Shown here: positions 7,208-59,586 of the stretch, in pieces
How positions within the stretch are numbered: the stretch's first letter is position 1
Layout of the letters: the number at the start of each line of letters is the position of its first letter
Virus record (IMG/VR): IMGVR_UViG_3300026536_000001
Coordinates: 1 to 59,586 of that record
Length of the DNA stretch: 59,586 nt
From: a virus
Taxonomy: Duplodnaviria; Caudoviricetes
Direction: 5' to 3' (one strand)
The notes under the pieces: model-generated
Databases searched by the model: none
Told to the model about the DNA's origin: nothing
Seen by the model: only the letters and a program-made list of their open reading frames with translations
Made by a program: the position numbers and the translations under genes

Positions 7208-7298
7208 CCAGGGTTCTGCTCATGGCTCGGCTTCACCTCGCTTCGGAACGGGTCACGCCACAGCAGCGCGATTCTCGCCTTCAGGACAGCCTCCGATG

Positions 7299-17713: not shown

Positions 17714-18109
17714 TCACACCGTCCTCGTTCGACTTACAGCAGGCGGATAAAGCCACGTCACTCCGTCAGGTTTCGATAAATCCATATCCAGATGAATAAA
17801 GCTGAAGCCAATACCAACCCTTCTGAAACCTAACGCGATGGCATTTTCGACGATCACAAATCTTGTGTGACTATCCCTCGCTGTGATGTCAACTGCAAGG
17901 CCGTTTTCGTGCGAGGAGGAATCGACTCCTCCGACTTCTCGATTGTGTTCGGGTGTGCGATATCCACTACTGATGAAGAGTGGAAAGCCGCATTTGGACC
18001 GCAGCTCGTCGAGGAGCTTTACGAAATCGAGATTCATCTTCGAGCCGCTTCCAGGCGCATCTGGACTTGAGAATTCATCCGGTTGGAAATAGCGTATGCC
18101 TTCCCACAT
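17714..18109 (-). CDS. peptidase M15A-family endolysin
   Basis: SSGYRTPEHN..SSHENGLAVDI..FIHLD. Confidence 0.9.
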   Translation of the reverse strand: MWEGIRYFQPDEFSSPDAPGSGSKMNLDFVKLLDELRSKCGFPLFISSGYRTPEHNREVGGVDSSSHENGLAVDITARDSHTRFVIVENAIALGFRRVGIGFSFIHLDMDLSKPDGVTWLYPPAVSRTRTV

Positions 18110-18164: not shown

Positions 18165-18242
18165 CTCGGCTTCACCCCAGAACGGCTCGAAACGGCCCAC
18201 ATCGGCCCACATCGGCTCAGCGCGAAACGACCCTCGGCTTCA
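18165..18242 (-). ncRNA. YG-NNN guide cassette (1 unit, 12 triplets) matching endolysin
   Basis: decodes to GFRSMGMGFSFG vs resident GFRRVGIGFSFI. Confidence 0.85.
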
Positions 18243-21415: not shown

Positions 21416-21530
21416 AGCCGAGAGGCGAAGCGCCGCGTGCCGTCGTGGGACGTAGTGACGTGAAGCGCCGTGAGCCGCGCTGGCGTGTTGTGCCGTGACG
21501 TGAACCGCAGTGGGGTGAGACGAATTCGAG
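21413..21530 (+). ncRNA. YG-NNN guide (20 triplets) complementary to a terL homologue
   Basis: decodes to LPWFVGNARLGFVYPEHGFL vs resident LPWFTGSARLGYIYPEQGFL. Confidence 0.9.
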
Positions 21531-23696: not shown

Positions 23697-23917
23697 ACGA
23701 AAAGGTCTTTCAATCCAGTCACTTGCAACGCGGCGTTTACGATCCGGCGACGGGGAACCTAGAGATCGAGTTCGTCAATGGTCAACGCTATACTTACGAG
23801 GGCGTGCCGCAAGAGAAATGGGAGGCCCTGACACGAGCGGTATCCCCCGGAAAGTTCTTGCATAACTGGATCAAAGGATCGCATAATTCTCGACCGATGG
23901 GCACCTCTGAGACCTGA
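23693..23917 (+). CDS. KTSC domain protein
   Basis: YDPATGNLEIEFVNGQRYTYEGVP..SPGKF..IKG. Confidence 0.9.
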   Translation: MNEKVFQSSHLQRGVYDPATGNLEIEFVNGQRYTYEGVPQEKWEALTRAVSPGKFLHNWIKGSHNSRPMGTSET

Positions 23918-24035
23918 AGCCGAGGCTCGATTTGGAGCGTGTCGCGACGGGTTGAAGCGGGGTGAGACGAATCCGAGTAGCGATGTGTAGCGTAGCGAGG
24001 CGTCGTGGTTTGATCTGGCCTGCGGTGAAGCCGAG
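23915..24035 (+). ncRNA. YG-NNN guide cassette, 2 units (terL sense; portal antisense)
   Basis: decode to AIECRGKG and RAITDLYYIY. Confidence 0.9.
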
Positions 24036-24052: not shown

Positions 24053-24724
24053 GTGCCCGTCGTAGACTACCGCTGTTCCAGTTGCTTCAGAGATGACTCT
24101 CATTATTATCCGTTAGCCTCGTTTCCATACCCCGAGGTTATCCAGTGCCCATTTTGCGCTTCGCAGTCCGAACGCAACTACATGGCCGGTTCTCCATCAG
24201 TCGGTTTTTCTCCTATAGTCATACATATCCGAAAAGATACTGGTGAAGTCTCGATCCCAGGCCGAGTGGATGATCCGGTTGAAAAAGGCTACGAACGAGT
24301 CGAAATACGAGACTTTAGAGCCTATGAAAAATTCCGCCGTCACGTCGAGTCTGTTGAGAAAGAGAAGTCGCAGTTCTTCATGGAAGCGTCGAATGCTTTC
24401 TTTGATGATGTCCGGCGCGAACATCGCCAATCCCAACGTACTCGTATCGAACAAGCCATCCGTCAAGGAGGCTATGAAGCCACCTATATCGATGAAGACG
24501 GCAACGAAAAGAAGCGATGGGCCCCTATAACCCAACGTGCTCGGTTCCTCTTCGATCTCGCGTGTAAGTATACGGACCGTACTCGTGATGAGCGCCGTAA
24601 GAAGCTGGCATCTGGCTCCCCCAACTTCCACTCCCGCGCCCTCGAACACAGGTCCTCTGAGGCTAGTGTCGTTTCGGGTGAAGCCAAACGCGCCTCCCTC
24701 TTCTTCCGCAAGGGCAAGCCGTGA
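24053..24724 (+). CDS. FmdB-like zinc-ribbon protein
   Basis: MPVVDYRCSSC..CPFC. Confidence 0.7.
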   Translation: MPVVDYRCSSCFRDDSHYYPLASFPYPEVIQCPFCASQSERNYMAGSPSVGFSPIVIHIRKDTGEVSIPGRVDDPVEKGYERVEIRDFRAYEKFRRHVESVEKEKSQFFMEASNAFFDDVRREHRQSQRTRIEQAIRQGGYEATYIDEDGNEKKRWAPITQRARFLFDLACKYTDRTRDERRKKLASGSPNFHSRALEHRSSEASVVSGEAKRASLFFRKGKP

Positions 24725-26793
24725 GATCCGACACCGGTAATTTTTACTTGGCCCCACCGATACTCAACCAGGATGGCGAGACTCCCACTACTGACGAACT
24801 CCTCGGCTGGACAAAAGAGTTCCGTCAACAAGCGCAGTCATACCTAAGGCTGCAACCAGCGCACCCGTACATCCAAGATGGTCTCGACCTCATCAACGGA
24901 GACTTCGCTAAATCGACCGTCTCGACTCTCTCCAACGCCCGCACCGACTTGACCGTACGTAACGAAAAAGAACTGATCGCCGCTCAGACCAACCTCCGCA
25001 TCATCCCGGCCATCACCACCTCCATCGAAGCCTTCAAAGAGCAAGGCGTTTTATTAGATAAAAGTTGGATGTGGTGGCAGCAGAAAACCTTCGCCGATCG
25101 CGTGATCCGTCAAGCCTGGCAGAACGCCGTGGCTTTGGGCACCGGCTACTGTTCGATCGGCTACGACCCGGACTACTACTGTGCTGGTAAAGGCGAGATC
25201 GCCCTCCGTTCTCATGGCCCTCTCGATATCCTCCCGATCGGCCTCCCGCACGACCACAGTATCCAAAAGGCATATGCGGTCGCCATCAAAGTCCCCACGC
25301 CCTACCACCAAGTCATCGAAATGTTCCCGGACTTCCGCGATCAGATCCGCCCCACCACCGAGATGAAGGGCCGCGGCACCGTCATGGCCCAATCGGTCAA
25401 GTTCGCTTCGGCCGTCCTCAAACGTTTCGGTCCGACCGCGATTCAGGAACGCGAGCCGATGCCGTGGGCGATGACGGATTTATTTTACATTTATATCGAC
25501 GACCGCACCGTCAACCGCACCGGCAAAACCATCGCCATGGGCGACCCCCACACCTCCTGGGAGTACTTCGTCCCTTCTGTCGGCGATCTGATCGAGACCG
25601 GCCGCGACGACGAAGGCAAGTCCGTTTACAAACAAGCGACTCCGGAAGACTGCCGCTTCTATCCGAACCGCCGCCGGATCATCTGCACCGATAATTTAAT
25701 CCTCACTCCCGACCCGACTCTCCAGGTCAACCCGGCCTGGCACGGCAAGGTCCCCGTCGTTCAATTCCGCGCCGATGACTGGCCTTGGATGTTTCTCGGT
25801 TTCCCCCTCTCCAAAGCCGGAATGCTGCTGGAAAAAGCCAATACCGAGCTCCTGCGCGGCATCGTCGATATGATGAACGTGCGCCTCTCCCCACCGACCG
25901 GCTACGATCGTAACACCATGGCCCGCTCCCTAGCCGAAACCATCAATCTGCGCGTCCCCAACCAACGCCTCGGCCTCGATTACGGCCTGGGTGGCGACCA
26001 ATTCAAACCCCTCCTCCCGGTCGAGTTCCTGAACGTCCCCTCCAACATCCCGGAATTGATCACTCAAAACGAAGCCCGTCAGACGCACTACATGGGAGTG
26101 GCCGACGCTTCGGCCCTGACCCGTGCCCGCCAGCTCCCGGCCGGAGATTCCACCGACCGCTTATTAGAAGCCCTCGGTCCTCTGGTTAAAGATATGTCCC
26201 GGAACATGGAGCTCTCGGTCACCGGGATTGGCGAGATGTGGGTTCCGCTCGTGTTTCAGTGGTGGAAGGCGGGGAAGCGTTTCCAGATCTTTGGTGAAGA
26301 CGGACTCGTTGAAGAGGATATCGATTTCAACCCCGGTTCTCTGGTCCCTCAGGACGTTCTCTCTCTCCCCAAACACTCCTCCTACTTTGAACGCGCCCGG
26401 AAACATTGCGCTCATTTCCACTATGCGATCGAGCCGTACAGCCTGCACGAACTCAATTCGATGACACGGAAGATGGCCTTCCTCCAGCTTTCCCGCTCCG
26501 GCTTCCCGATTTCCTGGAAGACCCTAGCCCGAGTATGGGATGTCAAGAACTTCGACTTCGACCCCAAAGATACCGATCCGTCCAGCCCGAATTTCGGCAA
26601 GAGCCTCCAGGGAGAGTTCCCGATCTGGCTGGCCCAACAAGAGATTATGGCTCGAATCGCAATGGCCACGGGAGGCGGAGGCGGTAAAGGGAAAGGTCCT
26701 CAAGGACGTCCTCCTACGGGTCAGCAGCCGCCTTCTTTGGAGCAAAAAGGCGGGTTTGGTGGGCGCTCCACCATCCGCGAATCCAGGAGGTAG
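24721..26793 (+). CDS. portal protein
   Basis: 690 aa after terL; LGTGY..GYD, HGKVPVV motifs typical of podophage portals. Confidence 0.8.
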   Translation: MRSDTGNFYLAPPILNQDGETPTTDELLGWTKEFRQQAQSYLRLQPAHPYIQDGLDLINGDFAKSTVSTLSNARTDLTVRNEKELIAAQTNLRIIPAITTSIEAFKEQGVLLDKSWMWWQQKTFADRVIRQAWQNAVALGTGYCSIGYDPDYYCAGKGEIALRSHGPLDILPIGLPHDHSIQKAYAVAIKVPTPYHQVIEMFPDFRDQIRPTTEMKGRGTVMAQSVKFASAVLKRFGPTAIQEREPMPWAMTDLFYIYIDDRTVNRTGKTIAMGDPHTSWEYFVPSVGDLIETGRDDEGKSVYKQATPEDCRFYPNRRRIICTDNLILTPDPTLQVNPAWHGKVPVVQFRADDWPWMFLGFPLSKAGMLLEKANTELLRGIVDMMNVRLSPPTGYDRNTMARSLAETINLRVPNQRLGLDYGLGGDQFKPLLPVEFLNVPSNIPELITQNEARQTHYMGVADASALTRARQLPAGDSTDRLLEALGPLVKDMSRNMELSVTGIGEMWVPLVFQWWKAGKRFQIFGEDGLVEEDIDFNPGSLVPQDVLSLPKHSSYFERARKHCAHFHYAIEPYSLHELNSMTRKMAFLQLSRSGFPISWKTLARVWDVKNFDFDPKDTDPSSPNFGKSLQGEFPIWLAQQEIMARIAMATGGGGGKGKGPQGRPPTGQQPPSLEQKGGFGGRSTIRESRR

Positions 26794-28086: not shown

Positions 28087-28395
28087 ATGGCGGTCGAGAC
28101 CCCATCCACGCCGGACCCTCAATCCGGAGCGTATGGTGGTGTGCGGCAAATGACCGGTGACGATGGTATGGCCGGTGCGTCTCCATCTCCAGTCCAAGCC
28201 GATCCGGCACAGATGCTCGCCGGAGTCACGTCTCAACTTCGACAAGCCGACCAAGCCGTTAGCGAGATTGCCCGTGCTTTTCCGCAGGCTGCTGCCGAGG
28301 CCAGACGCGCGCGTTCGGCACTACGTTCGCTGCTTCAGAAAGTTGTCAGCGAACCCGGAGGAGGCGCTCCTGCCGCGCCTGTAGGTGAGGTATGA
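28087..28395 (+). CDS. hypothetical protein
   Basis: SD AGAGG, head-gene region. Confidence 0.6.
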   Translation: MAVETPSTPDPQSGAYGGVRQMTGDDGMAGASPSPVQADPAQMLAGVTSQLRQADQAVSEIARAFPQAAAEARRARSALRSLLQKVVSEPGGGAPAAPVGEV

Positions 28396-28442: not shown

Positions 28443-28578
28443 CACGATCTCACATCGCGACACGACAACTCACGGCGTTTCACGACAACGCGCGCCACGA
28501 CACCGCACGACGATACGCTTCTCGGATTCGTCTCGCATCAACTCATCTCGCCACGACCCGGGTCGGCCCTCGTATTCA
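28443..28578 (-). ncRNA. YG-NNN guide cassette, 2 units, antisense to the late operon
   Basis: one unit decodes to IDELGFERADREYF vs scaffold IDELGLEGADKDYF. Confidence 0.85.
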
Positions 28579-28675: not shown

Positions 28676-29659
28676 ATGCCTGTAGACACCAAAAGAGTTC
28701 AAGAATTGATCGATGAGTTAGGTCTCGAAGGCGCGGACAAAGACTATTTCGCCCGCGTTCTCACCACCAATGAGAAGGCGGGCGTTGCTTTTACCGGGCA
28801 GAGAGAGAGGCACGATAGGTTTACGCAGAAGACTCAAGAACTCTCTCAGAAAGAGAAAGAGTTGGAACAACGTGCCAATCAGCGCGACTTGGAGTTAGCG
28901 CAACAGTTAAACGCGGCGGAGGATCGCATCCGCAAAATCATGGCCGACTATGAGACTTCCGAGATCTCTCGTACTAAAGCAGAGACACTTCTTCGCCGTG
29001 TCAAAGAGATTTACAATTTGAGTGACGAAGACATACCGAAGCTCTCCGAGCCTCCCAAGCCCAAAGACACTCCTCCTCTCGACATCGACAAGAAGTTCAG
29101 CGAGTTCAAGGACACACTCCTCAAGGAACTGGCTCCCAACTTCCGCGCCCTCCCTCGAATCAACGTCATTCAGGCAGAGATTTTTGAGAGGCACCGCGAG
29201 CTTACCGGCAAGCGTCTCACCCAGCGCGAAATGGAAGAACTGATGGCCGAATCCATGAAAGACAACGGTCCGACTCTCATGGAAGCTTGGCGCGAAAAAT
29301 ACAAGATCGCCGATATCGAGAAGAAGAAGGAACGCGAGGAGTGGTCCAAAGAGGACCGGCAGAAGTGGGAAGACGAACAGAAAGCCAAGAACAGCGAAGA
29401 AGCGATGCGGCAAGTCCGCTCCACTCCCGACGGCCGCACTCAACACCTCTCTCCGGTCTTCCGCGAATACAAACGGCACGAAGACGGCACCTTCGCTTCT
29501 CAGCAAGCTCCGGATAAGGACAAGAACCGTCCGGCCGACAGAGTACCGGCAGTGCAGAATGGACAGAAGTTGAGCGGAGCCGAACGAGCGGCGAAGAGCT
29601 TCATCGAAAGAAGACAGGCGGGAGTGCCTCTGGGGAAAGAGGCTGTTGGGAAAACCTAG
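28676..29659 (+). CDS. capsid scaffolding protein
   Basis: charged coiled coil (FTQKTQELSQ) upstream of MCP. Confidence 0.7.
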   Translation: MPVDTKRVQELIDELGLEGADKDYFARVLTTNEKAGVAFTGQRERHDRFTQKTQELSQKEKELEQRANQRDLELAQQLNAAEDRIRKIMADYETSEISRTKAETLLRRVKEIYNLSDEDIPKLSEPPKPKDTPPLDIDKKFSEFKDTLLKELAPNFRALPRINVIQAEIFERHRELTGKRLTQREMEELMAESMKDNGPTLMEAWREKYKIADIEKKKEREEWSKEDRQKWEDEQKAKNSEEAMRQVRSTPDGRTQHLSPVFREYKRHEDGTFASQQAPDKDKNRPADRVPAVQNGQKLSGAERAAKSFIERRQAGVPLGKEAVGKT

Positions 29660-45205: not shown

Positions 45206-45302
45206 TGAAGACGAGGTGCGACGTGTTACGCCCGTGATCCGAACCGATATGAGGTGAAGTCGAGCAGTGATGTGCGATGCAGCGATACGGGACGAAGCCG
45301 AG
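45206..45302 (+). ncRNA. YG-NNN guide cassette, 2 units, enclosed by a 13-bp inverted repeat
   Basis: handles TGAAGACGAG, TGAAGTCGAG, CGAAGCCGAG; IR 45190-45202/45311-45323. Confidence 0.75.
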
Positions 45303-47926: not shown

Positions 47927-50017
47927 ATGGCACAAGATATCCAGACCATGTTGGATGATCCGAGATTCCACGGCCTCCCCGCGCCGGAACGCATCAAGTT
48001 TCTGAACACGGTTTATCCCGAGTTCAGATCACTACCGGACGCCGAGAAGCTGAAGTTTGTAACCTCGCCACGTTTATCTCCAAAGAAGCGGCCGATTGGG
48101 GCCACCGGCACATTCACTGAACCTACCCGGACCGAGGTGGCTCTACGCACCGCTTTAGGCCCGTTCGCCCGGCTTGGTGCCGGTGTCGTGGATGCGGCTA
48201 AAGCGACTGTCCATATGCCTCTGGATATTGCCCGTGCTGCTGGACAACCACCCCAAACAGAGCGTGAGAAACTCGCGGCTGCCTCGGCCGGTGGACTGGG
48301 ACTCCTTGGCGAACGACTCATTGCTCGTCCGACCATGGAGTCCTACGAATCGGCTAAAAAAGCGACCTCCCCATGGCGAGCTGCCGTTGCGGGCACCGGA
48401 ATGGTCCCGCTTGTGGGTCCCCCGGCGCGCCACATCGGAGAGCGGCTGCTGAGCGGTGATATCGCTGGAGCGATGGGCGAGGCTCTTGTCCTGTATCTCC
48501 TGCCAAAGACAGTAGGCGAAGCGAAGACGAGCTATCTCAAACCCCTCAAGTACCCGGAAACCGATACAGCCGTCACGAAATCGTCGATCGATGATCTCTC
48601 TTCGGTGATCCGTCCTGGAGTGAAGGCCGTCCCGCTCCAGCCCACGGCTCTTGCCGGTCAACCTCTGCTCAAACAAGTGGCTCAGGAAGCCAATTTCAAT
48701 CCCCTCCTCAACCTCGCGATCAAGCGGGAGACGGTGCCACCCGGAGACGCGTTTGGCGATCTCTATCGTGGCGGAACCGAAGCCCAAACCCGGCTAGTAT
48801 CCCAGAGACTCGGAGTGGAATACAATCCGGCCGATCCGACGCCGATCCCTTTAATGTTTGCCGATCGCGCGGTGGACATCGCCCAACGTCCGATGGATCG
48901 GATCGTCAACTATTTCGCGAATGAAGACGCCGCTGCGGTTCGTGACGCTATTGTCAAAGGATTGGAGGAGCGCGCTTCAGCCACTCCCGACAGCGCCTTG
49001 AAATCCAACTACGCCCACCTGATTCAAGAGGTATGGGCCAAATCACCCAACGTGGCCGGGATGAACGCCTTGAAAGTCTACGCGAACAAGGAGTCGGCCA
49101 GGCTGTATCGGATGTTTCCTGGAGCTCAGATCCAAGCCACGGCGACACCGATTCAAGCCTTCAAGGATCTCGGCGATCTGGTCCGATCCAACTTATACCC
49201 CTTTCTCCAACAAAAAGGGGCCGCCAATTTGTTCGAGTTCGGCCGTCAGGAAGCGGTGGCTATCGCTATGAGGGACGGGATTTACCAATCGTGGACCGAA
49301 GCTGCGATCCGGCAAGTCGCCGACGACCGGCAGGGTTATCTCGATTGGGTCACTTCCGGCCACAGCGATACCCTGCGGTTCGCTTTAACCGAGCGTTCAG
49401 CGGCGACGGTCGGCATGGCTGGACGCTTCTTCAAGGGAAAACCCAACCCATTAGGTGATTTCAACAAAGCCTTTCGCAACGGGATCGGATCGACGGGCGG
49501 GTTTGTCCCTCATCCCGCTCTCTCACGCCGTCCGAAGTTCTGGCCCGATCCACTCACGGGTCGTGGCGAACGCGGACAGCTTCCGATGGGACCGACACCA
49601 CCGATAGAAGGAGGACCACCCACATACCAGGAACCGCTCTGGAGAGAACCCTCTGTGGGCGGGCCACGCGGGCCACAAGGACCTCCCGGCGAGGAGTATC
49701 GAGCGGATATCCGCCGCCGTCAGATCTGGCGCGAAGGGGCCGAGCCGAAGCCCAAAGGCCAACTCTCTCTAGAAAAGGGAATTCCGCCCAAGCTATTCGG
49801 GATCGAACAGACGCCGTTCCGCTGGCAACCCGCCCAGCGTGAAACCTACACCCTCAAAGATCTCAATGACATGGGACGCGAAATCATGGACTATCTGAGC
49901 AAAAACCAGCCCCGACCCAAAGTCCGCCAAGAACTCATGAGCGACCTGATCGCGATCCGGCGCGAGATCAACCGGCGTATGGCTGCCCGGAAGGCTGGTC
50001 CCAGTATGAACTTCTAA
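47927..50017 (+). CDS. internal virion/ejection protein
   Basis: 696 aa, position. Confidence 0.55.
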   Translation: MAQDIQTMLDDPRFHGLPAPERIKFLNTVYPEFRSLPDAEKLKFVTSPRLSPKKRPIGATGTFTEPTRTEVALRTALGPFARLGAGVVDAAKATVHMPLDIARAAGQPPQTEREKLAAASAGGLGLLGERLIARPTMESYESAKKATSPWRAAVAGTGMVPLVGPPARHIGERLLSGDIAGAMGEALVLYLLPKTVGEAKTSYLKPLKYPETDTAVTKSSIDDLSSVIRPGVKAVPLQPTALAGQPLLKQVAQEANFNPLLNLAIKRETVPPGDAFGDLYRGGTEAQTRLVSQRLGVEYNPADPTPIPLMFADRAVDIAQRPMDRIVNYFANEDAAAVRDAIVKGLEERASATPDSALKSNYAHLIQEVWAKSPNVAGMNALKVYANKESARLYRMFPGAQIQATATPIQAFKDLGDLVRSNLYPFLQQKGAANLFEFGRQEAVAIAMRDGIYQSWTEAAIRQVADDRQGYLDWVTSGHSDTLRFALTERSAATVGMAGRFFKGKPNPLGDFNKAFRNGIGSTGGFVPHPALSRRPKFWPDPLTGRGERGQLPMGPTPPIEGGPPTYQEPLWREPSVGGPRGPQGPPGEEYRADIRRRQIWREGAEPKPKGQLSLEKGIPPKLFGIEQTPFRWQPAQRETYTLKDLNDMGREIMDYLSKNQPRPKVRQELMSDLIAIRREINRRMAARKAGPSMNF

Positions 50018-50405
50018 CGTCTCCGGAGCACGTCTAGGATAGAGGTTCCAAATAGGTCCGCAATCCAGCCCGCGATAAATAGAAGAACCATGAGTAGAAC
50101 CCAACCTACAAATAAAGCTGCTGCAATCGTTACGATCACTCGACTTCACCTCACTTCATCCATAACCCTATTTGCGGTGGCCGGACTCGATACCGGCTGG
50201 TGGCGCTTCCGCTGGCAATGATTCGGATTTCTTAATCGCCGTATCAAGGAGCCTCTCTTCGGCGAAACGCCAGTCTGGACCCTTTAACCCTGTCCGGTAC
50301 TCCGGTTACCTGCTCCTAACGGTTTGCGCTCACTCTCCATTCGCTCCCCCTACTGCTAGAGGGACCTCGCTAGGTCTGTGTGTCCTGTCCACACCGCACC
50401 GCAAA

Positions 50406-50640
50406 CTCGACTTCATCTCACCACATTCCGGCTCGCCGCAAAACTCGGCTTCGTTTCAGCTCGTCGCAAACCACTACACACCAAGACGATTCTCGAATTC
50501 GTCTCGCTTCGTGACAACTCGTAACACCGCAATGCGATTCTCGGATTCGTCTCGTTCCAGATCGTCTCGCCTCACGTCGCCACAAATCACCACTCGGCTT
50601 CGTCTCGTCTCGACTCGGCTCACATCGCCGCTCGGCTTCA
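50406..50640 (-). ncRNA. YG-NNN guide cassette, 5 units
   Basis: handles 50406, 50444, 50492, 50540, 50593, 50631. Confidence 0.85.
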
Positions 50641-51015
50641 CACGGTCATGGCCGGTATCGTCGGCAACGGGATCTCCGGATCAGGCTTCTCCTCCGGCTG
50701 CAAGATTGAACCCAGGTCCGCAATGGTCGCCACATGCCGGACGGTATTTCCGCGGATCAGTAGCAAACCACCGCAATGAAAACAGTTCGCCCAGTTTCCC
50801 GTCGCTGCAATCGGGTTCAACTGGGTCTCCCGGACATCGTGATTGGCTCGAACATGGACCGGCGACGGCTTCCGGGTTTGAGGCTTCCCCTTCCGGAGAG
50901 AACCCGCTTGATTCGCGTGCCAGCGTTCATGTGCGGCCAACCCTCTTATATCTATTGGTTTAGCGCAGATCGAACACGGCACTCGACGCATTATTATTTT
51001 TGTTTTTGCCTTCAT
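50638..51015 (-). CDS. C2H2 zinc-finger protein
   Basis: CSIC..HERWH; CFHC. Confidence 0.6.
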   Translation of the reverse strand: MKAKTKIIMRRVPCSICAKPIDIRGLAAHERWHANQAGSLRKGKPQTRKPSPVHVRANHDVRETQLNPIAATGNWANCFHCGGLLLIRGNTVRHVATIADLGSILQPEEKPDPEIPLPTIPAMTV

Positions 51016-51199
51016 ATCTATCCTCTCGCGGCCTCATCGACGTCTTTGGTTTCGAGGATCGCTTTGCCTTCCCTTTTGTACATCGCACAAGCTGGTGTCT
51101 CACACCACAGCTCGACGACAGGAACTTTTCCTTCACCGTGAGCAATCGCCATCTGACCCCAGCACGATGGGCACAGAAACGTAGGTTTGAGCCAGACTT

Positions 51200-51550
51200 T
51201 CACGGTTTCAGCACCTCGAAAAACGCCTGCTGCCAGTAGCCCTCGCCGGTCACGTAAGACTTCTCGATCACATCCGGTGGGACACCGTTTTCCAGGAGCA
51301 GTTCTCGCTTGATGGAACGGCGGCCTTTCACCCACGTCGATCGGAATCCGATACCGTTATTTTTCACTCCCTGAATCCCGTTCATCGTACAGACATTCGA
51401 TAACCCGGCTTTGATCTCGTTCAGACGTTCGATCTTCGACTTGATCTCTCGATCCAGGGCGAACCCTTCGTCCAACAACGCTACGGCCTCTTTGGCGTCG
51501 CCAACGTTGAGTGTTCCAAACACTGGCTCGACTTCGGTTTGTTCTTTCAT
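51200..51550 (-). CDS. hypothetical protein
   Basis: 116 aa; matched by adjacent guide. Confidence 0.7.
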   Translation of the reverse strand: MKEQTEVEPVFGTLNVGDAKEAVALLDEGFALDREIKSKIERLNEIKAGLSNVCTMNGIQGVKNNGIGFRSTWVKGRRSIKRELLLENGVPPDVIEKSYVTGEGYWQQAFFEVLKP

Positions 51551-51589
51551 AAACGTTTCCTATTCGTATCGGGGCGACCCCCTCTGGTA

Positions 51590-51662
51590 CTCGCCTTCGT
51601 CTCAGACCACCTCGCAACGCGGCACCTCGCGGCACGGCACGTCACCGCACAACTCGGCTTCA
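51590..51662 (-). ncRNA. YG-NNN guide cassette (1 unit) matching gene 51200-51550
   Basis: LTLNGLGGVR(N) vs resident CTMNGIQGVKN. Confidence 0.8.
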
Positions 51663-53102
51663 TCCCTTCGACCATCTACTCATGATTTTTGACTCCGCTT
51701 CGACAGGTACACGAAGATATGACTCCGATGAGTCTCTGTCAAGCATAACATTCATCATGGTCGCGGCAGTCATGTCCCCGACAACCTCGGCCCACTCTTC
51801 TTCGACTTCAGACAGCAGTTCGTCGTGGATACTTACGAGCGGTTGCACCCAGACATTCCTCTTTCGGAGGTCTTCGTGGACTTCCTCCATCTCTCCCATC
51901 GTCAGCCGCATCCAATCCGCACCCGTACCCTGGACCGGCATGTTGGCGGCCTGTCTCAACCCTGCCGCTCGAATATGGGGTAGCGCCGACTGGACTTCAG
52001 GCACCTTCCTAACACGCCCGAATAGGGTCCACACGACACCGTACCGCCGCGCCCGATAGAACTGGTCCTCGATATAACCCTTGACTCCCGGATACCACTC
52101 ATTGAACCAGCGTTCAATAAACCGTTCGCACCATGCCACGTCGATCTCCGGAGGGAGAGGGAGATTGGCCGTCGCGTAGGTTACACACATCATGTCGAAC
52201 AGTCCTGGCCCGCCCAGACCATAGAACACCCCGAAATTCACATTGCGGCTCGGTGTCCGCTGCGTGATGTAATCTGGCGTCTGGGTATTGAACGCCAATT
52301 TGGCCGTCTCGTTGTGGGGGTCAATGCCGAGTTTGAAGATCCGGATCAGGTTCGCGTCCTGGCTGTAATGCGACCCGATTCGCATCTCCTCTTGACTGAA
52401 ATCCGCCGAAACTAAACGGGTTCCCGGACTGGCAACAAACCCCTTGCGAAGTTCGCGTCCCAGTGCCGTACGGGAAGGGATGTTCTGGAGGTTGGGATTC
52501 TTCGTTGCCAACCGGCCGGTCTCTGTCCGCGTATCTAATACTTCCGCATGGACCCGATCGGTCGCTCCATAGTGTTTTAATCCGCACCAGCAGCTCCCCG
52601 CCGGATGGTGCCGCGCTAATTTGGGTAGCGCATCGCAATAGGTACTTTTAAGTTTCATTCTCTCGCGATAATCCAACACTTTCTGAATCACCGGATGCTC
52701 GCGCTTCAACCCTTCCAACTGCTTCTTCCCCGTCGATACCCGGCTGCCAGAAGGAGTCATCTTCAACGGCTTTCCCTGACCGACTTTCAGTACATCAAAA
52801 AGCAGGGTGGCCAGTTGATCCGACGATCCCACATTCATGGGTAGATAATCGTCATCGCCAATGAGATTGGAACGGCTGATGAACTCTTCTAACCGGTCCG
52901 GAGGGATCACCTCACAGATCTCTTCACGCAAGTAACGGGCTTCCCGTTCCAGGCGGATACCGAGATCGGCGAAGTAGCCTTTATCGATCGCAATACCATA
53001 TTGCATCATCCGGCGGACCATCGGAACGGGTAACAAATCGAGCTTTCTCACGTTTTCGAGGTCGGGACGGTTGGTTACTTGGATATCACCATACAGGCTC
53101 AT
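51660..53102 (-). CDS. polA: family A DNA polymerase, polymerase domain
   Basis: TETGRLA..NPNLQNIP, ADFSQEE (motif A), RNVNFGVFYG (B), IHDEL (C). Confidence 0.92.
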   Translation of the reverse strand: MSLYGDIQVTNRPDLENVRKLDLLPVPMVRRMMQYGIAIDKGYFADLGIRLEREARYLREEICEVIPPDRLEEFISRSNLIGDDDYLPMNVGSSDQLATLLFDVLKVGQGKPLKMTPSGSRVSTGKKQLEGLKREHPVIQKVLDYRERMKLKSTYCDALPKLARHHPAGSCWCGLKHYGATDRVHAEVLDTRTETGRLATKNPNLQNIPSRTALGRELRKGFVASPGTRLVSADFSQEEMRIGSHYSQDANLIRIFKLGIDPHNETAKLAFNTQTPDYITQRTPSRNVNFGVFYGLGGPGLFDMMCVTYATANLPLPPEIDVAWCERFIERWFNEWYPGVKGYIEDQFYRARRYGVVWTLFGRVRKVPEVQSALPHIRAAGLRQAANMPVQGTGADWMRLTMGEMEEVHEDLRKRNVWVQPLVSIHDELLSEVEEEWAEVVGDMTAATMMNVMLDRDSSESYLRVPVEAESKIMSRWSKG

Positions 53103-53332
53103 ATCCGCCGGTTTGGCTCATACCCACCGATCTCCGGCCATAACTGACCTATCCAATACTTGAAGCCTTCAGAGTCGATCAGGCCCGCCCGCCACAACTG
53201 GAGGAGAACGAGTTTACGGTTTGTGTTCACCGCAAGCCATTGACGATATAACGGCTGGGCAATCGGAACGGATGGGATCGCCATCGCCGCCACGGCTCCT
53301 CCGCAACACTTGAAGAAATCTCTTCGGTTCAT
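53099..53332 (-). CDS. small protein with Tat-like N-terminus (MNRRDFFK)
   Basis: twin-arginine-like motif. Confidence 0.55.
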   Translation of the reverse strand: MNRRDFFKCCGGAVAAMAIPSVPIAQPLYRQWLAVNTNRKLVLLQLWRAGLIDSEGFKYWIGQLWPEIGGYEPNRRI

Positions 53333-53673
53333 CTTTCGAAATCGGCCATCATTTCAACGGCTCGATCGGCAGCCGTCACTAGTTGATGAAGTAAGGGCAA
53401 CAGCACTGAGGAAAGAGCGACGATGGAATTCAGAGGATCTTTCCCCTTGACCCGCGCCATCAAATCCCCGGCGATCGCCTGAGTCTCTTCCAACGCACCC
53501 GGTCTGGCGATACGGTGGCAAATCGCGCTGAGTGGTATCTGAACTTGTTGGGCAAGCTTCGCGATCTCATTGCGCCGGTCGATGGTGGCTTCCAGACCAG
53601 ACTTGCCACTGGTTCTGGCCTGACTGGCTAGCTCCCTGACGGCTTCTTGAATCGCTCTCTCCTTATCGGTCAT
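53329..53673 (-). CDS. hypothetical protein
   Basis: SD GAGGAGG before MTDKER. Confidence 0.6.
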   Translation of the reverse strand: MTDKERAIQEAVRELASQARTSGKSGLEATIDRRNEIAKLAQQVQIPLSAICHRIARPGALEETQAIAGDLMARVKGKDPLNSIVALSSVLLPLLHQLVTAADRAVEMMADFER

Positions 53674-54394
53674 GATCCTCCTCACGAACCCCGAAATAGC
53701 CGAGCCGCTCCCGTTCTTCCTCAAGCGCGACCGCTAATTGCAGAGTCACATCCGCGTCTCTTACAGCGTATTCGACGGCCTCCTCTTCCGGCACCCAGCC
53801 AATCCCCTTCTCCGGGAGATCCAAATCCAACCCCCACTGCTGTTCAATCTCCTTTAACCGGCTCTCTATGTCGTAATCCGGACTCTTCATCCCAAATTTA
53901 AAAATGCGTTCCAAAGTCCTGTAGGCGATACTGGGTTTCTCGACCACCTTGACGGCTCCGCGGCGGGTTTCCTTCCACTCCAGATCCGGAGTCAAGGCCG
54001 CTTCCATCAGCAGCTCCGACAGTCTTTCCAACAGCTTTTCCCTGGAGGCGGCCCCCACGAGATCCGACCAATCTTGCATCCGGACACCGAACAGGCGGTA
54101 GCCGAGAACCTTGAGACTCTGAGGCAACCCCAGATGATATGACTCCTGAAGTGTGTCTCGATAACGTCCATGATATCGAACGCCGATGAGATCCATAACC
54201 GGCAGGTCGGCCGGAGCGTGATGGAAGACCAAAATAGCACCGCTGTCGAGCCTTGAATTGAGCAAATCCACCAAAACGGCCACTGCCTCCGTGTCGGACA
54301 TTCGAACCAAGATTCCTGTTCCCGGCCGCAGCGACACTTGGATACTGAACGGCGCCCCGGCGTGACTTTCGGTATCTATGCCGATCAAGTCCAT
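53663..54394 (-). CDS. 3'-5' proofreading exonuclease domain (split from polA)
   Basis: IGIDTE (ExoI), FHHAPADL (ExoII), YAVRDA (ExoIII). Confidence 0.85.
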   Translation of the reverse strand: MDLIGIDTESHAGAPFSIQVSLRPGTGILVRMSDTEAVAVLVDLLNSRLDSGAILVFHHAPADLPVMDLIGVRYHGRYRDTLQESYHLGLPQSLKVLGYRLFGVRMQDWSDLVGAASREKLLERLSELLMEAALTPDLEWKETRRGAVKVVEKPSIAYRTLERIFKFGMKSPDYDIESRLKEIEQQWGLDLDLPEKGIGWVPEEEAVEYAVRDADVTLQLAVALEEERERLGYFGVREEDHDR

Positions 54395-54861
54395 ATCTTC
54401 CTGTTACGGATACGACTCACGGTGCTCTGATGGACACTGAACCGTCCGGCAATCTCTAGCTGCGTCCCGACGGCCCGTCGTATCGCTTCGACGACCTTCG
54501 GCCCGTGTACCCAGCTATAGCGATGCGGCTTAACGAGGACGCCGACCCTTTTCTTCTTAGCGGCATCCCGCATGTTATCCGCGTCCGATCCTGAAAACAG
54601 ATGGGCCGGATTGCAGCAAGGCGGATTATCGCAGTGGTGGCAGATCAGGCGTGATGTGTCCATACCCGTGATAGAAGCGACAACCCGGTGGGCGTAGAAG
54701 GAAACCACATGCTTAGGCTCGATAGCCACGATAAACCGGCCGTAACCCGCAGCCGTTCTCGGACCCATCCATTCCCAGCAATCGTTTTTGTCTCCAGTGC
54801 GAATCGTCGAATGGAGACGGTGAAGTTGATCACCACTGAACTCCGGGATAGGTTTAATCAT
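54385..54861 (-). CDS. HNH homing endonuclease
   Basis: CWEWMG..YAHRV..CHHCDNPPCCNPAHL..DNMRD. Confidence 0.92.
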   Translation of the reverse strand: MIKPIPEFSGDQLHRLHSTIRTGDKNDCWEWMGPRTAAGYGRFIVAIEPKHVVSFYAHRVVASITGMDTSRLICHHCDNPPCCNPAHLFSGSDADNMRDAAKKKRVGVLVKPHRYSWVHGPKVVEAIRRAVGTQLEIAGRFSVHQSTVSRIRNRKIWT

Positions 54862-55131
54862 GTTTTATTTTCTCGGTATCGGCCCCGATCAGGTTCACTT
54901 CCGTCGTATCGCAACGGTCCACTCTCGCCTCGGCCGAACCTGAAACCGCACACATATCCGGCACATCCTCCCGAACGGCCTGGACGACCACTTCGTCTCT
55001 TCCAAATGATGAAGATCCTTCCCACAAATCGTCTTCCACTCATCCATTGTCACGGTATCGACAAGGTGGGTGGAGGAGGTCCGCCGCGAATAAACGGTAT
55101 GGTTGAATTTCCAAGCAACGTAGTCCGCCAT

Positions 55132-55344
55132 TTATTCTTCGGGCTCCGGTCCGAGATACGTCTTCCAACACTCCCCGTGCAGTCCGGTGATCAACCGCTC
55201 GCGCTCGTCTGTTGTGAGCTCCGGAAAGCATCTTTGGATCAACTCCCCCGCCTTCCAACGCCGATACGCCGCCTCGTCCAGATCGAACTGCTGGGTCTGT
55301 TTGCACACCGGACAGGGCTTGCTATAGATCCGTATCGTCGGCAT
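55132..55344 (-). CDS. small zinc-binding phage protein
   Basis: CPVC..LIQRCFPEL..RERLITG..CW. Confidence 0.65.
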   Translation of the reverse strand: MPTIRIYSKPCPVCKQTQQFDLDEAAYRRWKAGELIQRCFPELTTDERERLITGLHGECWKTYLGPEPEE

Positions 55345-55955
55345 CAGGGATTCTCCTCGAAGTACGTCCGCACCCCATCTTTATGGACCAATCGATAGTC
55401 CGTCTCGGGATATTGATCGACCGGCCACACCCACTCTCGCGTCTCCAGCCACGGTTGGAGCCGCTTCCAATCATCGAGCAACACGCTCATCCACCTCGTT
55501 TCGTGTAAACCTAACGCGGGATGATACATGGGAACAATAAATCCCTTCCAGCCAAACAAGCTCCCCTCGAAAGGACGGCCATGATCCGTCTCTAATCGGA
55601 GACCTGGAACGAGGGAACACGCCACTCCTCCTAACAGGAATACGATCTCCGGTTGAACCTTATCGAGTTCACCAGGGAGCCAATGGGCCGAACACCCGGC
55701 GATCTCTTTCTCGTTAGGAGTGCGGTTGCCCATCGCAAAACATTTTACTGTGTTGCTAACGAATACCTCCGTTCTAGAGAGCCCGGCGAGCGGGAGATAG
55801 GTTTCATTCCACTCCCGCCCGGATGGACCCACAAACGGAATCCCTTGTTTCATCTCCCACTGGCCCGGTCTTTCCCCGACGGCTCCGTATCTCGCCGGAC
55901 ATGGACCGTGACCCAGGACCGGCCTGAACCTCCTGGGACAGATGGGACAAGTCAC
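55344..55955 (-). CDS. uracil-DNA glycosylase (family 4-like)
   Basis: VGERPG..PFVGPSG..NTVKC..MYHPA. Confidence 0.88.
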   Translation of the reverse strand: MTCPICPRRFRPVLGHGPCPARYGAVGERPGQWEMKQGIPFVGPSGREWNETYLPLAGLSRTEVFVSNTVKCFAMGNRTPNEKEIAGCSAHWLPGELDKVQPEIVFLLGGVACSLVPGLRLETDHGRPFEGSLFGWKGFIVPMYHPALGLHETRWMSVLLDDWKRLQPWLETREWVWPVDQYPETDYRLVHKDGVRTYFEENP

Positions 55956-56191
55956 GCCGGTAGTCCCTCACCAACGTACTCGAACATCCTCTCCCAATCC
56001 GCCCGTGGAATATGACAATGCCGGAGCGTCCCGGCCCACTCCGGTTCGATCCGTAACGGAACATAGGTCACCAGATCCGGACCTTTCCCGTAGTGGTCCC
56101 GCGACAGGTTGATGAACAGGTACAACTCACCAACACCACCACCTTTGCCGCGGCCGGACACAGCGATCTTGCGATAAACTCCAGAGAGCAT
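55952..56191 (-). CDS. hypothetical protein
   Basis: SD GGAGG. Confidence 0.55.
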   Translation of the reverse strand: MLSGVYRKIAVSGRGKGGGVGELYLFINLSRDHYGKGPDLVTYVPLRIEPEWAGTLRHCHIPRADWERMFEYVGEGLPA

Positions 56192-56199
56192 CTGGCCTC

Positions 56200-56460
56200 C
56201 TATTTCGGGAGTAGATTTTCCGGGAAGTCGATCTTCCGTATCTTACTGTTCATCCACATCTTAGCTACCTCGAATGGTAGGCGGATGTTGAGATAGACCG
56301 CCCCTTTCAGGGTTGTGTTTACTCCATCTGCTGTTTTTGGATCGATCTCCCCGTTCAATTGAAGATTCAAAACTTCTTCGTAAACATCACGATGGTTCTG
56401 AACCGTCTTCAACGGCATGAATCGTTTCTTCTTATCATCGGCTTTGCTTTCGTCAGGCAT
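56200..56460 (-). CDS. small protein directly downstream of the main guide array (candidate accessory)
   Basis: SD AGGAG; 86 aa. Confidence 0.65.
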   Translation of the reverse strand: MPDESKADDKKKRFMPLKTVQNHRDVYEEVLNLQLNGEIDPKTADGVNTTLKGAVYLNIRLPFEVAKMWMNSKIRKIDFPENLLPK

Positions 56461-56487
56461 ACTCCTATCCTTTCTTTGAATTCGGTA

Positions 56488-57231
56488 CTCGGCTTCGTCT
56501 CAGATCACAGCACTCCAGCGCAAATCGATACTCGAATTCGTCTCGTCTCGACACGCGGCAACGCTCAACGAATCACCCCGGCCCTCGGCTTCATCTCAAC
56601 ACGTTACGTTGTGTCACACCTCGGCTTCACGTCGTCTCGCTTCGTATCGCGACACCGCTCTGCGCCTCTTGTATTCATCCCAGCACACTTCAGCGCAACC
56701 GCACAGCACGTCTCGGATTCACATCGCCTCACTGCAAGACGCAACACAACACATCGCCTCTCGACTTCGCCTCAGCTCATGTCACCGCGCATCACGACAG
56801 ATCGACTCTCGGCTTCGATTCACAACAAGCTCGACTCCGTTCATCGCGGATCGTCTCTCGGATTCATCGCAGCTCAACGCGCTTCACACCAACTCACGCC
56901 ACCACGCGACAACTCTCGGATTCACATCGGCGCACACCAGCGCAACACGTATCTCGGATTCACCTCACCACGACACTCGTCGCTACGCTTCACAACACAA
57001 CTCGAATTCGCCACAACTCACTTCGAAACAACGCACCACGCCGCGCGACACGTCTCGAATTCGTCTCACAACACTGCAACACACACCATCACGTCACACG
57101 TCGCAACTCGGATTCGTCTCGGTTCGTTTACGTATCAGGGCGTCCCCTATTCTCAATACTCGAATTCGTCTCGCGCCACACCAGCGCAACTCGCGTCGAA
57201 ACGCGGCACCTCGCTACGTCTCTCGTCTTCG
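56488..57231 (-). ncRNA. main YG-NNN guide array, 15 units between 16 handles
   Basis: handle spacings 43,53,36,48,44,48,48,49,58,38,48,53,53,52,63 (11 of 15 = 5n+3). Confidence 0.9.
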
Positions 57232-57235
57232 AGCT

Positions 57236-57937
57236 TTAGCTCGCTTCTTCAATGGTAGCGATATACTTTCCTCCGCCCGCTGATCTCTCCCCACCGTAGC
57301 CGTGCGTCCCTCCATAATTCATCAGCGTACTCAGATCCTTGATACTCACGGAGGTTCCCAGGATCTTCAATCTGAATTTGATCATGGCGGGCCGCACCAC
57401 TTCAAAGGACTTCAACGCATTGATGGGTTCTCCTCTCGGTCCTCTGGCGTGGACTGGCTTGTCCAACACTTCGTCGGCCGCAGTAACCGGAGTCCCGTCT
57501 GGCCGCAGGATCGGAATATACTCGTTGGCCTCATCCAAATATGCCCCGTTCACTACCCTTGTTGCAAAGCTCCGTTCACCTTTTATTTTCCCTATAAATT
57601 GCGCTGAGATCACCCTCGCACAATCCTTCAAATGCGCCCGTATCGTATCTTCCCGCACCACCAGCACCTCGTTCTTTTTCTGAAACACTCTTAACGGAAT
57701 GGCCGCTGTTGTTGGATTGGTCAGCGTATCGAGAACCTCCTCGGTGATCTCATCAATACTCTTTCCTCCTGCTGGCATCACGTCCGGAGCTCTACTGTCC
57801 AACCAGGGTCCGACCAGATTCCCATTGGCAGGCACAGACCCGCACAAGTCCCGGATGAAGTCCCACCTCACGTTATAAACGGTCCAGATCGAATCGTTTC
57901 TCTCTTTCGTTTTCGTTTCTTTCTCGGTAATACTCAT
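57236..57937 (-). CDS. stand-alone RAMP/Cas7-like RNA-binding protein (VIPR-like effector)
   Basis: N-terminal beta strand plus LCGSVP, TIRAHLKDCA helix, C-terminal G-rich loop YGGTHGYGGERSAGGGKY; abuts array; start MSITEK with SD AGGAG. Confidence 0.8.
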   Translation of the reverse strand: MSITEKETKTKERNDSIWTVYNVRWDFIRDLCGSVPANGNLVGPWLDSRAPDVMPAGGKSIDEITEEVLDTLTNPTTAAIPLRVFQKKNEVLVVREDTIRAHLKDCARVISAQFIGKIKGERSFATRVVNGAYLDEANEYIPILRPDGTPVTAADEVLDKPVHARGPRGEPINALKSFEVVRPAMIKFRLKILGTSVSIKDLSTLMNYGGTHGYGGERSAGGGKYIATIEEAS

Positions 57938-58016
57938 TGTTGGTTCTCCTGTTTTTATTGGCGACGTTCCGTTCCGTCTATGATGTACCGGTATCTCCCC
58001 CGGTGTAGGGAGTCTA

Positions 58017-58044
58017 ATTATATGCCCACAGTCGATATTGTCAA
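58017..58044 (-). promoter_or_regulatory. consensus sigma70 promoter TTGACA-N16-TATAAT driving RAMP gene and array
   Basis: perfect hexamers ~80 nt upstream of RAMP start. Confidence 0.8.
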
Positions 58045-58228
58045 GTGTCCACTTCAACCTTGCCATCGTGTAGACGCACGACGATTTTCAAAAACTCGGA
58101 ATTCTTCGTTTCGGCCATTATGGTTTTCGTATCCAATAAAAGACTCTTCCCGCTGCCATAGAGAAGATACAGCTTATCCAGATGTTCAATCAGGCTGTGA
58201 AACTCCGCGCGGACCTCCTGTTCAAAAG

Positions 58229-58990
58229 TCATACCGGCCTCCCATATAATTCCTTCACCACCTTCTCGGCCGTGACTCGGCTCTTCTTAATCCCGAGAGC
58301 TTGCATCCACTCCTCCACACTCGCCGAAACCATACTGACGGCGTTCGGGAAGAACTTCCCCACTTGCCATGCCCGGTGGTCGATACCTTCGATTTGACTG
58401 GCCATCCTCACCACGAGATTGGGCGGATCGGGGTGGATCAGCCGAACTGAAGTTGACTCTGGAGCTACCGGAGCATAGATGTCTCTCGGGCTCTTATGCG
58501 CCTCCCAGTCCTTCTCCCACCAGCGATAGAGATCCACAACACACTTCGCGGTCTCAGTTGGATTCGCTGTTCGACGGATCTTGACTCCGCACAATTCAAC
58601 GGAGGTGCAAAAATTATCCACTCCCTCGTATAGAGTCAACCTCTTCCCGAACAGCCCAGACCTCCATCCACCATTCCCATGGCAAATCTCCAGTTCTCCG
58701 CCTGGCCCCGGCCTCCAGATGCCCTCCACAACGAGGTATGTCACGTCGTAGGTCTTCAACAGCCCGCGCAACTGGTGGCCTTGTAACCGACCCGTCTCCA
58801 TTGATTGAATCAAGTCGGATATCGTTTTCCTCTCGACTCCAATAGAGAGCATCCCCTCCGGCCCGTTCCCAGCGAAAGCCAGGTCACCGAACTCCAGCCT
58901 CGACAACTGAACGATAACGCCGAAGGGATGGAAATAATTCTTCAATTCACGACTTCCGGCACGATCGTCTACAAGTATTTGCGGGTTCAT
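58229..58990 (-). CDS. ERCC4/XPF-domain nuclease
   Basis: ILVDDR..LEFGD..GVERKTISDL..YLVVEG. Confidence 0.85.
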   Translation of the reverse strand: MNPQILVDDRAGSRELKNYFHPFGVIVQLSRLEFGDLAFAGNGPEGMLSIGVERKTISDLIQSMETGRLQGHQLRGLLKTYDVTYLVVEGIWRPGPGGELEICHGNGGWRSGLFGKRLTLYEGVDNFCTSVELCGVKIRRTANPTETAKCVVDLYRWWEKDWEAHKSPRDIYAPVAPESTSVRLIHPDPPNLVVRMASQIEGIDHRAWQVGKFFPNAVSMVSASVEEWMQALGIKKSRVTAEKVVKELYGRPV

Positions 58991-58997
58991 CTCGACT

Positions 58998-59295
58998 CTC
59001 GGCTTCGTCTCGCTACAACTCGCGTCGGCACACTTCTCGGCTTCGTCTCGTCTCGAAACACTGCGACTCGTTGCGCTACGGGTCGTCTCTCGGATTCACC
59101 TCACGCCAGCACGAATCGACACATCTCACCACACTACTCGGATTCACCCCAACACGTCTCGTCACAACGCACCACAGCACAACACGGACCGACACTCGGA
59201 TTCACCTCACAGCAAGTCGTAACACAACACGCCGCAACGGTTCTCGACTTCACCCCACCACGCTCCACTCCACATCACGTCGCTTCTCGACTTCA
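58998..59295 (-). ncRNA. YG-NNN guide cassette, 6 units
   Basis: handle spacings 38,53,48,58,48,43 (all 5n+3). Confidence 0.88.
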
Positions 59296-59341
59296 ATCTC
59301 CGCCTTACGGCTCACGGATAAATGAGTCCGCGTAAAAGCTC

Positions 59342-59586
59342 TCAAACAGCACGTTGCCGCCTCCGGGCCGGTCTGGTCAACGCGGCTTCTACCAGCCAAC
59401 CCCGCTGAATCCTCGACCAAATCGCACTCCAATGGATACCCGTTTCATCCTGCCATGCCATCAAGCACTGGGTCTTCCCGAATGCAGTAATCATCCGGTT
59501 GGTTCGCCGGTTTCTAGCCTGTTCCATCCGCGTCGCCCAACAACAATTCGACGGCTCATAATTCCCAAGATTGTTCTTGCGCTCGA
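59342..59586 (-). CDS. C-terminal part of junction-spanning HNH endonuclease
   Basis: in frame with ORF starting at 521. Confidence 0.8.
   Translation of the reverse strand, partial: ERKNNLGNYEPSNCCWATRMEQARNRRTNRMITAFGKTQCLMAWQDETGIHWSAIWSRIQRGWLVEAALTRPARRRQRAV

Follow-up and report, generated by a model that had tools for sequence, protein, structure and literature searches.

A phage-encoded Cas7-like protein and pentamer-built repeat arrays whose spacers resemble neighboring genes

We describe here a gene coding for a Cas7-like protein and the arrays of short repeats that accompany it in 59,586 nucleotides (nt) of viral DNA (Duplodnaviria; Caudoviricetes; IMG/VR record IMGVR_UViG_3300026536_000001), the whole of which is hereafter called the window. 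As the record is rated 100% complete, the window represents the entire genome (59.6 kb) of a soil phage; an exact direct terminal repeat of 127 nt is found at 1-127 and 59460-59586. The cas7-like gene (Csm3-type RAMP) lies on the minus strand at 57236-57937 and encodes 233 amino acids (aa); its open reading frame (ORF) stays open up to 58066, and its homologs begin near 57937. Downstream of it, repeat parsing delineated a main array of 15 repeats (56488-57231, plus strand), followed by a gene for an 86-aa two-helix protein (56200-56460, minus strand). The latter accompanies the cas7-like gene at 21 loci and is its only conserved partner; a fold search with it returned nothing at E ≤ 0.001. A sigma-70-like promoter is predicted upstream of the cas7-like gene (58017-58044, minus strand), with 12/12 positions agreeing in what is a consensus match only. 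Given this promoter, the array is probably transcribed together with the gene, as the strand reading YGNNN, and the gene, the array, and the small gene would probably form a single RNA. A gene for an ERCC4-domain nuclease is located just upstream of the cas7-like gene (58229-58990). Searches for cas1, cas2, and cas6 (PF01867, PF09827, PF01881), which left out models of Cas5, Cas10, and Cas11, found none in the complete genome, the controls being positive.

The original prediction, made from the sequence of this region, had taken the cas7-like gene for a RAMP effector gene, and fold comparisons agree, with matches to Csm3, type VII Cas7, and Cas7-11. The AlphaFold model (predicted local distance difference test score, pLDDT, 78.6) gave 102 Foldseek hits at E ≤ 1e-3, and among the matches listed are Csm, Cmr (Cmr4), type VII, III-D, and III-E (Cas7-11) complexes; the fold shared with Cas7 backbones has a Foldseek probability of 1.00. 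In VIA, 29 chains had Z ≥ 8, the top ones being type VII Cas7 and Csm3 (Z of 11.6 for 8yhd_A and 11.2 for 6ae2_B). Judged by this modeled structure, the protein has the RRM-based Cas7 fold and is by fold a member of the Cas7/RAMP superfamily. Sequence profiles were far less informative: Pfam gave nothing at E ≤ 0.1 for the protein and PHROG no match, PF03787 (Pfam RAMPs) had no hit at E ≤ 1 in the whole genome, and PADLOC returned only a weak Csm4 match (E 0.023) across the glycine-rich C-terminus. The family profile searched against Protein Data Bank (PDB) sequences retrieved a lone S3 match (E 1.5), which we judged to be chance. The family, which has no name yet, comprises 187 hits and 226 clusters at 50% identity. 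It is apparently restricted to viruses, with no match in 50,697 GenBank phage records and no relative in 185,579 prokaryote species represented by one genome each. Locus searches of viral and metagenome contigs with the single protein gave no match.

The window holds 13 arrays with a 10-nt repeat of the family CTCGRMTTCR. The spacers between the repeats are built of pentamers, NNNCR, in which an invariant C and then a purine come after three variable bases. Repeats are spaced by 38, 43, 48, 53, 58, 63, 68, or 108 nt, that is 5k+13, and each unit carries 6-20 triplets. In the units with 5k+13 spacing, 253/258 pentamers have C at position 4 and 252/258 have a purine (A or G) at position 5, and the strand bearing this pattern is poor in G. 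Three stretches of the main array have lengths other than 5k+13 and break the pentamer frame (56584-56711, 56808-56856, and 57107-57158, plus strand); these units look decayed or indel-bearing. The first pentamer of most spacers in the window is usually TCTCR, CCTCA, CCCCA, or CATCG. With such a recurrent first pentamer, the effective repeat may be ~15 nt long, and many forward decodings begin with Leu. Nine CR-phased pentamers without a preceding repeat were also seen at 56019-56066, inside the ORF 55952-56191. They may have arisen by chance, be what is left of a decayed unit, or belong to a coding sequence mimicking the array grammar.

The combination of this protein and these arrays recurs in dozens of uncultivated phages. 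Pentamer runs were found within 2.5 kb downstream of the gene in 55 of the 59 homolog loci whose downstream sequence extends for 600 nt or more, and 350 of 351 runs are found on the strand opposite to it. The repeat differs among lineages, reading CCCGRMTTCA in the contig L045 (array L045:2891-3800), and this variation suggests that the repeat co-varies with the protein. Another contig holds ~18 units in one array (L004:10230-11160). Two further genomes, G004 and G005, carry arrays as well, though these were missed by an overly narrow repeat pattern. From the 5-nt period of the arrays and the 55/59 linkage, we infer that the Cas7-like protein binds the guide RNA as a filament. Folding of either strand of the array was no more stable than that of shuffled sequences (z of -0.03 and +0.63), and an Rfam search of 50000-59586 gave 0 matches. 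No description of this array system was found in the literature, supplements not being covered.

The unit next to the cas7-like gene (57159-57231, plus strand) is the one that had been singled out as the first guide of the main array, and it is indeed the first past the stop codon of the gene along its direction of transcription. By parsing, it opens with the 10-nt repeat CTCGAATTCG (57159-57168), continues with a spacer in which 10/10 pentamers are NNNCR plus 3 nt (57169-57221), and closes with the repeat CTCGTCTTCG (57222-57231), which a gap of 4 nt separates from the cas7-like stop codon. Deleting the CR dinucleotides and reading from base 2 gives the same 32-mer as had been decoded before, LATRLVNGLY(L). 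Its counterpart in the resident gene, FATRVVNGAYL, was located on the minus strand at 57536-57568 within the ORF 57236-58066, where the alignment places it in a conserved block of the family with the consensus ERSFSTRVINGVY. Seven of the 10 full codons match in residue, or 8/11 if the first base of the next repeat completes the last codon. The recoding is as heavy as had been claimed, since the likeness is at the amino-acid level and the codons are unrelated: 17/30 nt agree, with 15/20 at codon positions 1-2 and 2/10 at position 3. The BLOSUM62 score of 37 against the adjacent protein was reached by 0/5000 triplet shuffles and 0/5000 nucleotide shuffles in any of the six phases. In a six-frame search of 3 kb on either side, the unit had a z of 4.9, with 0/100 shuffles as high, and genome-wide its z was 3.1 to 3.6. 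The decoding and the match are thus confirmed, and they are the visible part of a general pattern. The unit has the properties of a spacer, and its array is linked to the Cas7-like protein.

The original prediction had proposed collecting homologs and looking for one closer to the guide than the resident gene. Such homologs exist. The one in L045 matches the guide in 9/11 residues, 19/22 codon positions 1-2, and 21/32 nt; the resident gene scores 8/11, 16/22, and 18/32 by the same count. Of 84 homologs, at least 25 reach 20/32 nt or more, and no near-full match to the decoded guide was found among the 84 (best 23/32). It had also been suggested that the guide reflects a conflict between two systems, one silencing the effector of the other. 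The nearer homologs lend this idea partial support, and it is too narrow, because spacers of other arrays match their own neighbors in the same way: the rule is that a spacer matches the adjoining gene, not that system is set against system. The unit 57159-57231 would then be the case where the neighbor happens to be the cas7-like gene itself. In a second lineage (L009, L064, and L076), the gene-proximal spacer also matches its own cas7-like family.

All spacers were decoded in the six phases and searched in six frames within 3 kb on either side, each against 100 shuffles of its triplets. A z of at least 4 was obtained for 12 spacers, nine in the window and three in the unrelated contig L009, and whole-genome searches added matches in the window at 28448, 59248, 3289, and 23978. 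In total, 15 spacers (12 in the window and three in L009) were aligned codon by codon with a neighboring gene, and all their targets lie 12 nt to 1.45 kb away, on either strand. The matched genes code for a helicase, an M15 peptidase (endolysin-like), a Sak4-like protein, the Cas7-like protein, and two large proteins of unknown function. These matches emerge only once the CR dinucleotides are deleted. In direct nucleotide comparison with the window, the triplets taken as joined or with 5-nt gaps gave nothing beyond shuffled controls, the long unit described next excepted.

This long unit of 108 nt and 20 triplets (21413-21530, minus strand) matches the gene 21543-23696 at 22425-22481 in 14/19 residues (z ~15). 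The same gene is matched at 23220 (8/9) by one spacer of the array 23915-24035 (minus strand), whose second spacer matches the gene 24721-26793 at 25465 (6/9, and 22/27 nt in the relative G001). Three spacers of the array 3183-3341 (plus strand) match the gene 3344-4519 at 3877, 3520, and 3451 (8/8, 7/7, and 6/9 residues), including the stretches LKTGYLPY (8/8) and LFQSSFM (7/7). The single unit 6481-6548 (plus strand) matches codons 4-13 of the helicase gene 4832-6478 (8/10), 12 nt off, and the unit 18165-18242 (plus strand) matches the peptidase M15/endolysin-like gene 17714-18109 at 17830 (8/12, reverse phase 0). The array 28448-28578 (plus strand) sits between two plus-strand genes; one of its spacers matches codons 12-24 of the gene 28676-29659 (9/13) and another the 3' end of the ORF 28087-28395, namely its final 6 codons and the stop (7/7, with the wobble on N3). 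For the array 58998-59295 (plus strand, 7 repeats), the last spacer matches position 1168 in the Sak4-like gene 518-1336 (6/7 residues, 18/21 nt), the two being neighbors across the 127-nt terminal repeat. In L009, a spacer decodes to HGYAGERRDG and the cas7-like gene of that contig, 68 nt apart, contains HGYAGERSDG. A weak match (z 2.6) links the unit 51590-51662 (plus strand) to the gene 51200-51550, and the array 16578-16673 (plus strand) has no convincing match. Whole-genome searches found no match for the arrays 7226-7283 (plus strand), 45206-45302 (minus strand), and 50406-50640 (plus strand, 6 repeats).

One could argue that C-rich and G-poor repeats yield such matches by chance or through composition, as short peptides from biased sequences give many weak matches in large searches. 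We see hardly any likelihood in this, and the shuffles already refute it, as they failed in 5000 attempts to equal the unit 57159-57231. Moreover, z values rise up to 15, no strong hit is farther away than 1.5 kb in a genome of 59.6 kb, and the effect recurs in an unrelated contig. The character of the matches is also peculiar. Summed by hand over the 15 alignments, positions 1-2 agree in 246/294 cases and position 3 in 46/147. Of the 12 best hits, 10 have the base after CR (N1) aligned with the wobble position (p = 5e-4, two phases), and in one clear exception it is N3 that is so aligned. Third bases retain their purine or pyrimidine class in 56/61 split-box codons, the alignments having been picked by protein score, and codon-family switches for Ser, Leu, and Arg number 12/21 against 6.8 expected (P = 0.012, with the L009 rows judged by the codon usage of the window). 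The R of the CR dinucleotide shows no relation to the third base of the target. Taken from these alignments, the relation looks like recognition of coding sequence by a nucleic acid that is lenient at the third position.

Residue-level identity with independent codons would also be expected if the arrays were decoded into peptides that copy segments of neighboring proteins, the CR being skipped or edited out. However, the arrays have a fixed orientation (350/351) and the matches occur in both senses (six forward and four reverse among the best 12), which excludes translation of the arrays. In addition, forward-phase reading meets stop codons in at least five spacers of the window, each repeat displaces the frame by 3 nt, and codons are split by CR in the forward cases. 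We thus regard the peptide explanation as very improbable. Other kinds of repeats were considered and dropped, namely TRAP-like or Rho-type periodic RNA sites, stoperator-like sites, and template repeats of diversity-generating retroelements, for which the nucleotide identity is too low.

Comparison with related phages shows the protein and the arrays to be accessory. The close relatives G001 and G002 (67-70% identity) and G003 (46%), as measured in a 717-aa protein, have genomes that are 91-100% complete, and the cas7-like gene was found in none of the three. Runs of at least six pentamers number 36 in the window versus 1, 2, and 0 in three related complete genomes. The site of the unit 21413-21530 is free of arrays in relatives, and the genes flanking the array designated F are syntenic and nearly abutting in G002, from which we conclude that the arrays are insertions. 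As with homing elements, arrays lie 12-1449 nt from the sites that they match, and relatives lack them. The closest array-bearing relative, L045, has no spacer in common with the window; spacers therefore turn over and are younger than the divergence of the proteins. Contigs from four soil runs are identical to the window, hence no polymorphism could be read from them, and one contig that differs represents another array. Among 24 runs, no RNA data set containing the phage was found.

It is possible that the likeness is only historical, each spacer having been templated at its birth from nearby or recombining homologous coding DNA, and that the arrays serve as protein-binding tracts of RNA or DNA. 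Such a by-product would fit the turnover of spacers, the decay of several units, the restriction of neighbor matches to some genomes, and the fact that a full target was never found in 2.27 Mb of sequence or among the 84 homologs. The wobble phase preference (10/12) and the kept purine or pyrimidine class (56/61) point instead to selection tied to coding targets, and the third positions of the spacers are already unrelated to the resident codons although the spacers are young relative to the divergence of the proteins. On balance, we find this explanation improbable.

Several spacers are closer to alleles of other phages than to those of the genome that carries them. The long spacer shares 36/57 nt with the resident allele versus 42/57 with G001 and 41/57 with G002, and its third positions agree in 4/19, 13/19, and 9/19 cases, respectively. 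Similarly, the spacer at 23978 shares 18/27 nt with the resident gene and 22/27 with G001, and a spacer of L009 shares 18/30 nt with its own gene and 26/30 with L026. The two spacers of the window that are nearer to alleles of relatives are at most 80% identical to them. The resident target site of the long spacer is itself unusually low in GC content at third codon positions (6/19 versus 0.615 for the gene, p = 0.008), values as low being found in only 22 of 699 windows of the gene. When 213 spacers were compared across phages with the 2.27 Mb, only three exceeded the best of three shuffles by at least 3. These sequence comparisons tend to favor the view that other alleles are what the spacers mirror or target. 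A spacer at L065:283-335 was also seen to match the ORF 3622-4527 of L009 at L009:3807 (25/30 nt), a site that L009's own neighboring spacer matches as well.

The resident genes could nevertheless be the targets. The guides might act on their own neighbor genes, as DNA or mRNA, mainly through codon positions 1-2, and tune transcription, translation, replication, or recombination locally. The original prediction had mentioned a relic of autoregulation; this would be live autoregulation. The distance of 12 nt to 1.45 kb between spacer and target and the agreement of the resident positions 1-2 (246/294) fit such a role. With G-U pairs allowed, 14/21 to 24/27 positions could pair at the resident site, and for the long spacer the resident is as good a partner as the relatives (43 versus 44 of 57). 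In the case of the helicase, the unit immediately precedes the start codon and would be antisense to codons 4-13 in a co-transcribed RNA. However, matches in both orientations mean that a single RNA strand cannot pair with every mRNA, and the array 28448-28578 is sense-oriented to its neighbors. Switches between the Ser and Arg codon families cost pairing at positions 1-2 beyond expectation, a self match is lacking for the majority of spacers, both in this genome and in six others, and relatives do without the system. Self-directed control therefore appears unlikely, even if it is the foremost of the competing explanations.

We favor, with a probability of about 0.4, a Cas7-based guide system that is phased to codons and aimed at the alleles of neighboring genes in competing phages, possibly in a homing-like manner. 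In this model, the arrays and the cas7-like gene would share a transcript, in which the arrays read YGNNN. Each pentamer of the array RNA would be covered by one Cas7-like subunit, which would grip the constant dinucleotide and leave the triplet exposed. Together, RNA and protein would recognize protein-coding DNA in homologous alleles, reading one codon at a time with leniency at wobble sites. Its targets would be alleles of the neighboring genes in co-infecting related phages, the resident alleles differing by synonymous recoding. The outcome might be exclusion of the rival or conversion of its locus, with the array copied in as by a homing element; such a conversion would explain why each array adjoins the gene that it matches. 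It is a more tentative proposal, and in our view a rather doubtful one, that these elements form a new RNA-guided class with a 3+2 guide code, in which every subunit exposes one triplet and clamps one dinucleotide, and codon-phased, dispersed arrays act as homing or allele-exclusion elements and thereby as a natural guide-encoded gene drive among phages. Each array would then spread next to the gene whose alleles in rivals it attacks, and synonymous drift could not easily escape guides phased to the codons of their targets.

A number of observations weigh against the favored guide system. We know of no structural precedent in Cas7 complexes for 5 nt of guide per 3 nt of target, and of no way of writing spacers with interleaved constant dinucleotides. 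The module contains no conserved nuclease, the position of the ERCC4 gene being common only to L045 and not to the other 80-odd loci. In the main array, 13 of 14 spacers had no match in a genome-wide search, and the 57 spacers of six other complete genomes bearing the system gave one self match, 16.7 kb away (L124, genome G008, 3533-3585, SSARIASKFL versus SSARMATRFL, z 5.2); the neighbor rule is therefore not general. A near-perfect target was absent from the 2.27 Mb and the 84 homologs searched (best 23/32, 44/60, and 26/30). In nine cases of the window, the codons for the same residue are identical in 21/68 cases versus 24.5 ± 3.7 expected from phage codon usage, which indicates independence and not a general avoidance of the resident codons. 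Finally, with G-U pairs, the long spacer would hardly discriminate between the resident (43/57) and the two relatives (44/57 and 44/57).

The closest known systems share parts of this arrangement. The Cas7 backbones of type III (Csm3/Cmr4), type VII, and type III-E systems have the same fold and are encoded by genes adjoining a repeat-spacer array, and from these backbones with their CRISPR RNAs (crRNAs) a periodic RNA footprint would be expected here as well. Known Cas7 filaments have a 6-nt period, whereas the array period here is 5 nt. Direct repeats of class 1 CRISPR-Cas systems measure roughly 21-48 nt, compared with 10 nt here. Their spacers are contiguous copies of protospacers, unlike the present ones with a constant CR after every 3 nt, and the class 1 adaptation and processing genes cas1, cas2, and cas6 have no counterpart in this genome.

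Viral CRISPR mini-arrays target related viruses in inter-virus competition (PMC11656645). Their logic resembles that of the present arrays, as they are carried by viruses and their spacers are aimed at related viruses; they have host-type repeats and ordinary contiguous spacers and use host Cas proteins. By contrast, the Cas7-like protein here is encoded by the phage itself, the array grammar is a different one, and the spacers stand beside the resident gene that they match. Homing endonucleases, which tolerate changes at every wobble position of conserved coding targets (PMC3159444), offer a second parallel. The genes for these enzymes appear to follow the same selfish logic, with a conserved coding motif of the homologous allele near the element and the element absent from that site in relatives. 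The endonucleases recognize the site by protein, and here RNA arrays with a trans-acting protein would do so. TIGR-Tas systems (PMC12045711) also involve phage arrays missed by CRISPR finders and short, split guide segments between conserved motifs. Their Tas proteins have a Nop domain and their tigRNAs are 36 nt long with two spacers, one per DNA strand. We considered TIGR arrays as an identity for the present ones and dropped it, given the Cas7-fold protein and the units of 38-108 nt with 6-20 triplets.

From a biological perspective, if these arrays are guides, Cas7-type effectors can use a grammar far from that of CRISPR, with constant dinucleotides interleaved with information triplets. 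Guides could then be phased to the genetic code, which would give robustness to synonymous escape and possibly be of use in the design of mismatch-tolerant guides. This would also bear on the evolution of RNA-guided systems outside the adaptation machinery and on competition and gene flow among soil phages. If true, dispersed arrays beside the genes that they match would be the first RNA-based analog of free-standing homing endonucleases. Whatever their function, an apparently virus-only Cas7 family of 226 clusters at 50% identity, together with arrays that standard CRISPR finders likely miss, represents a sizeable blind spot in annotation.

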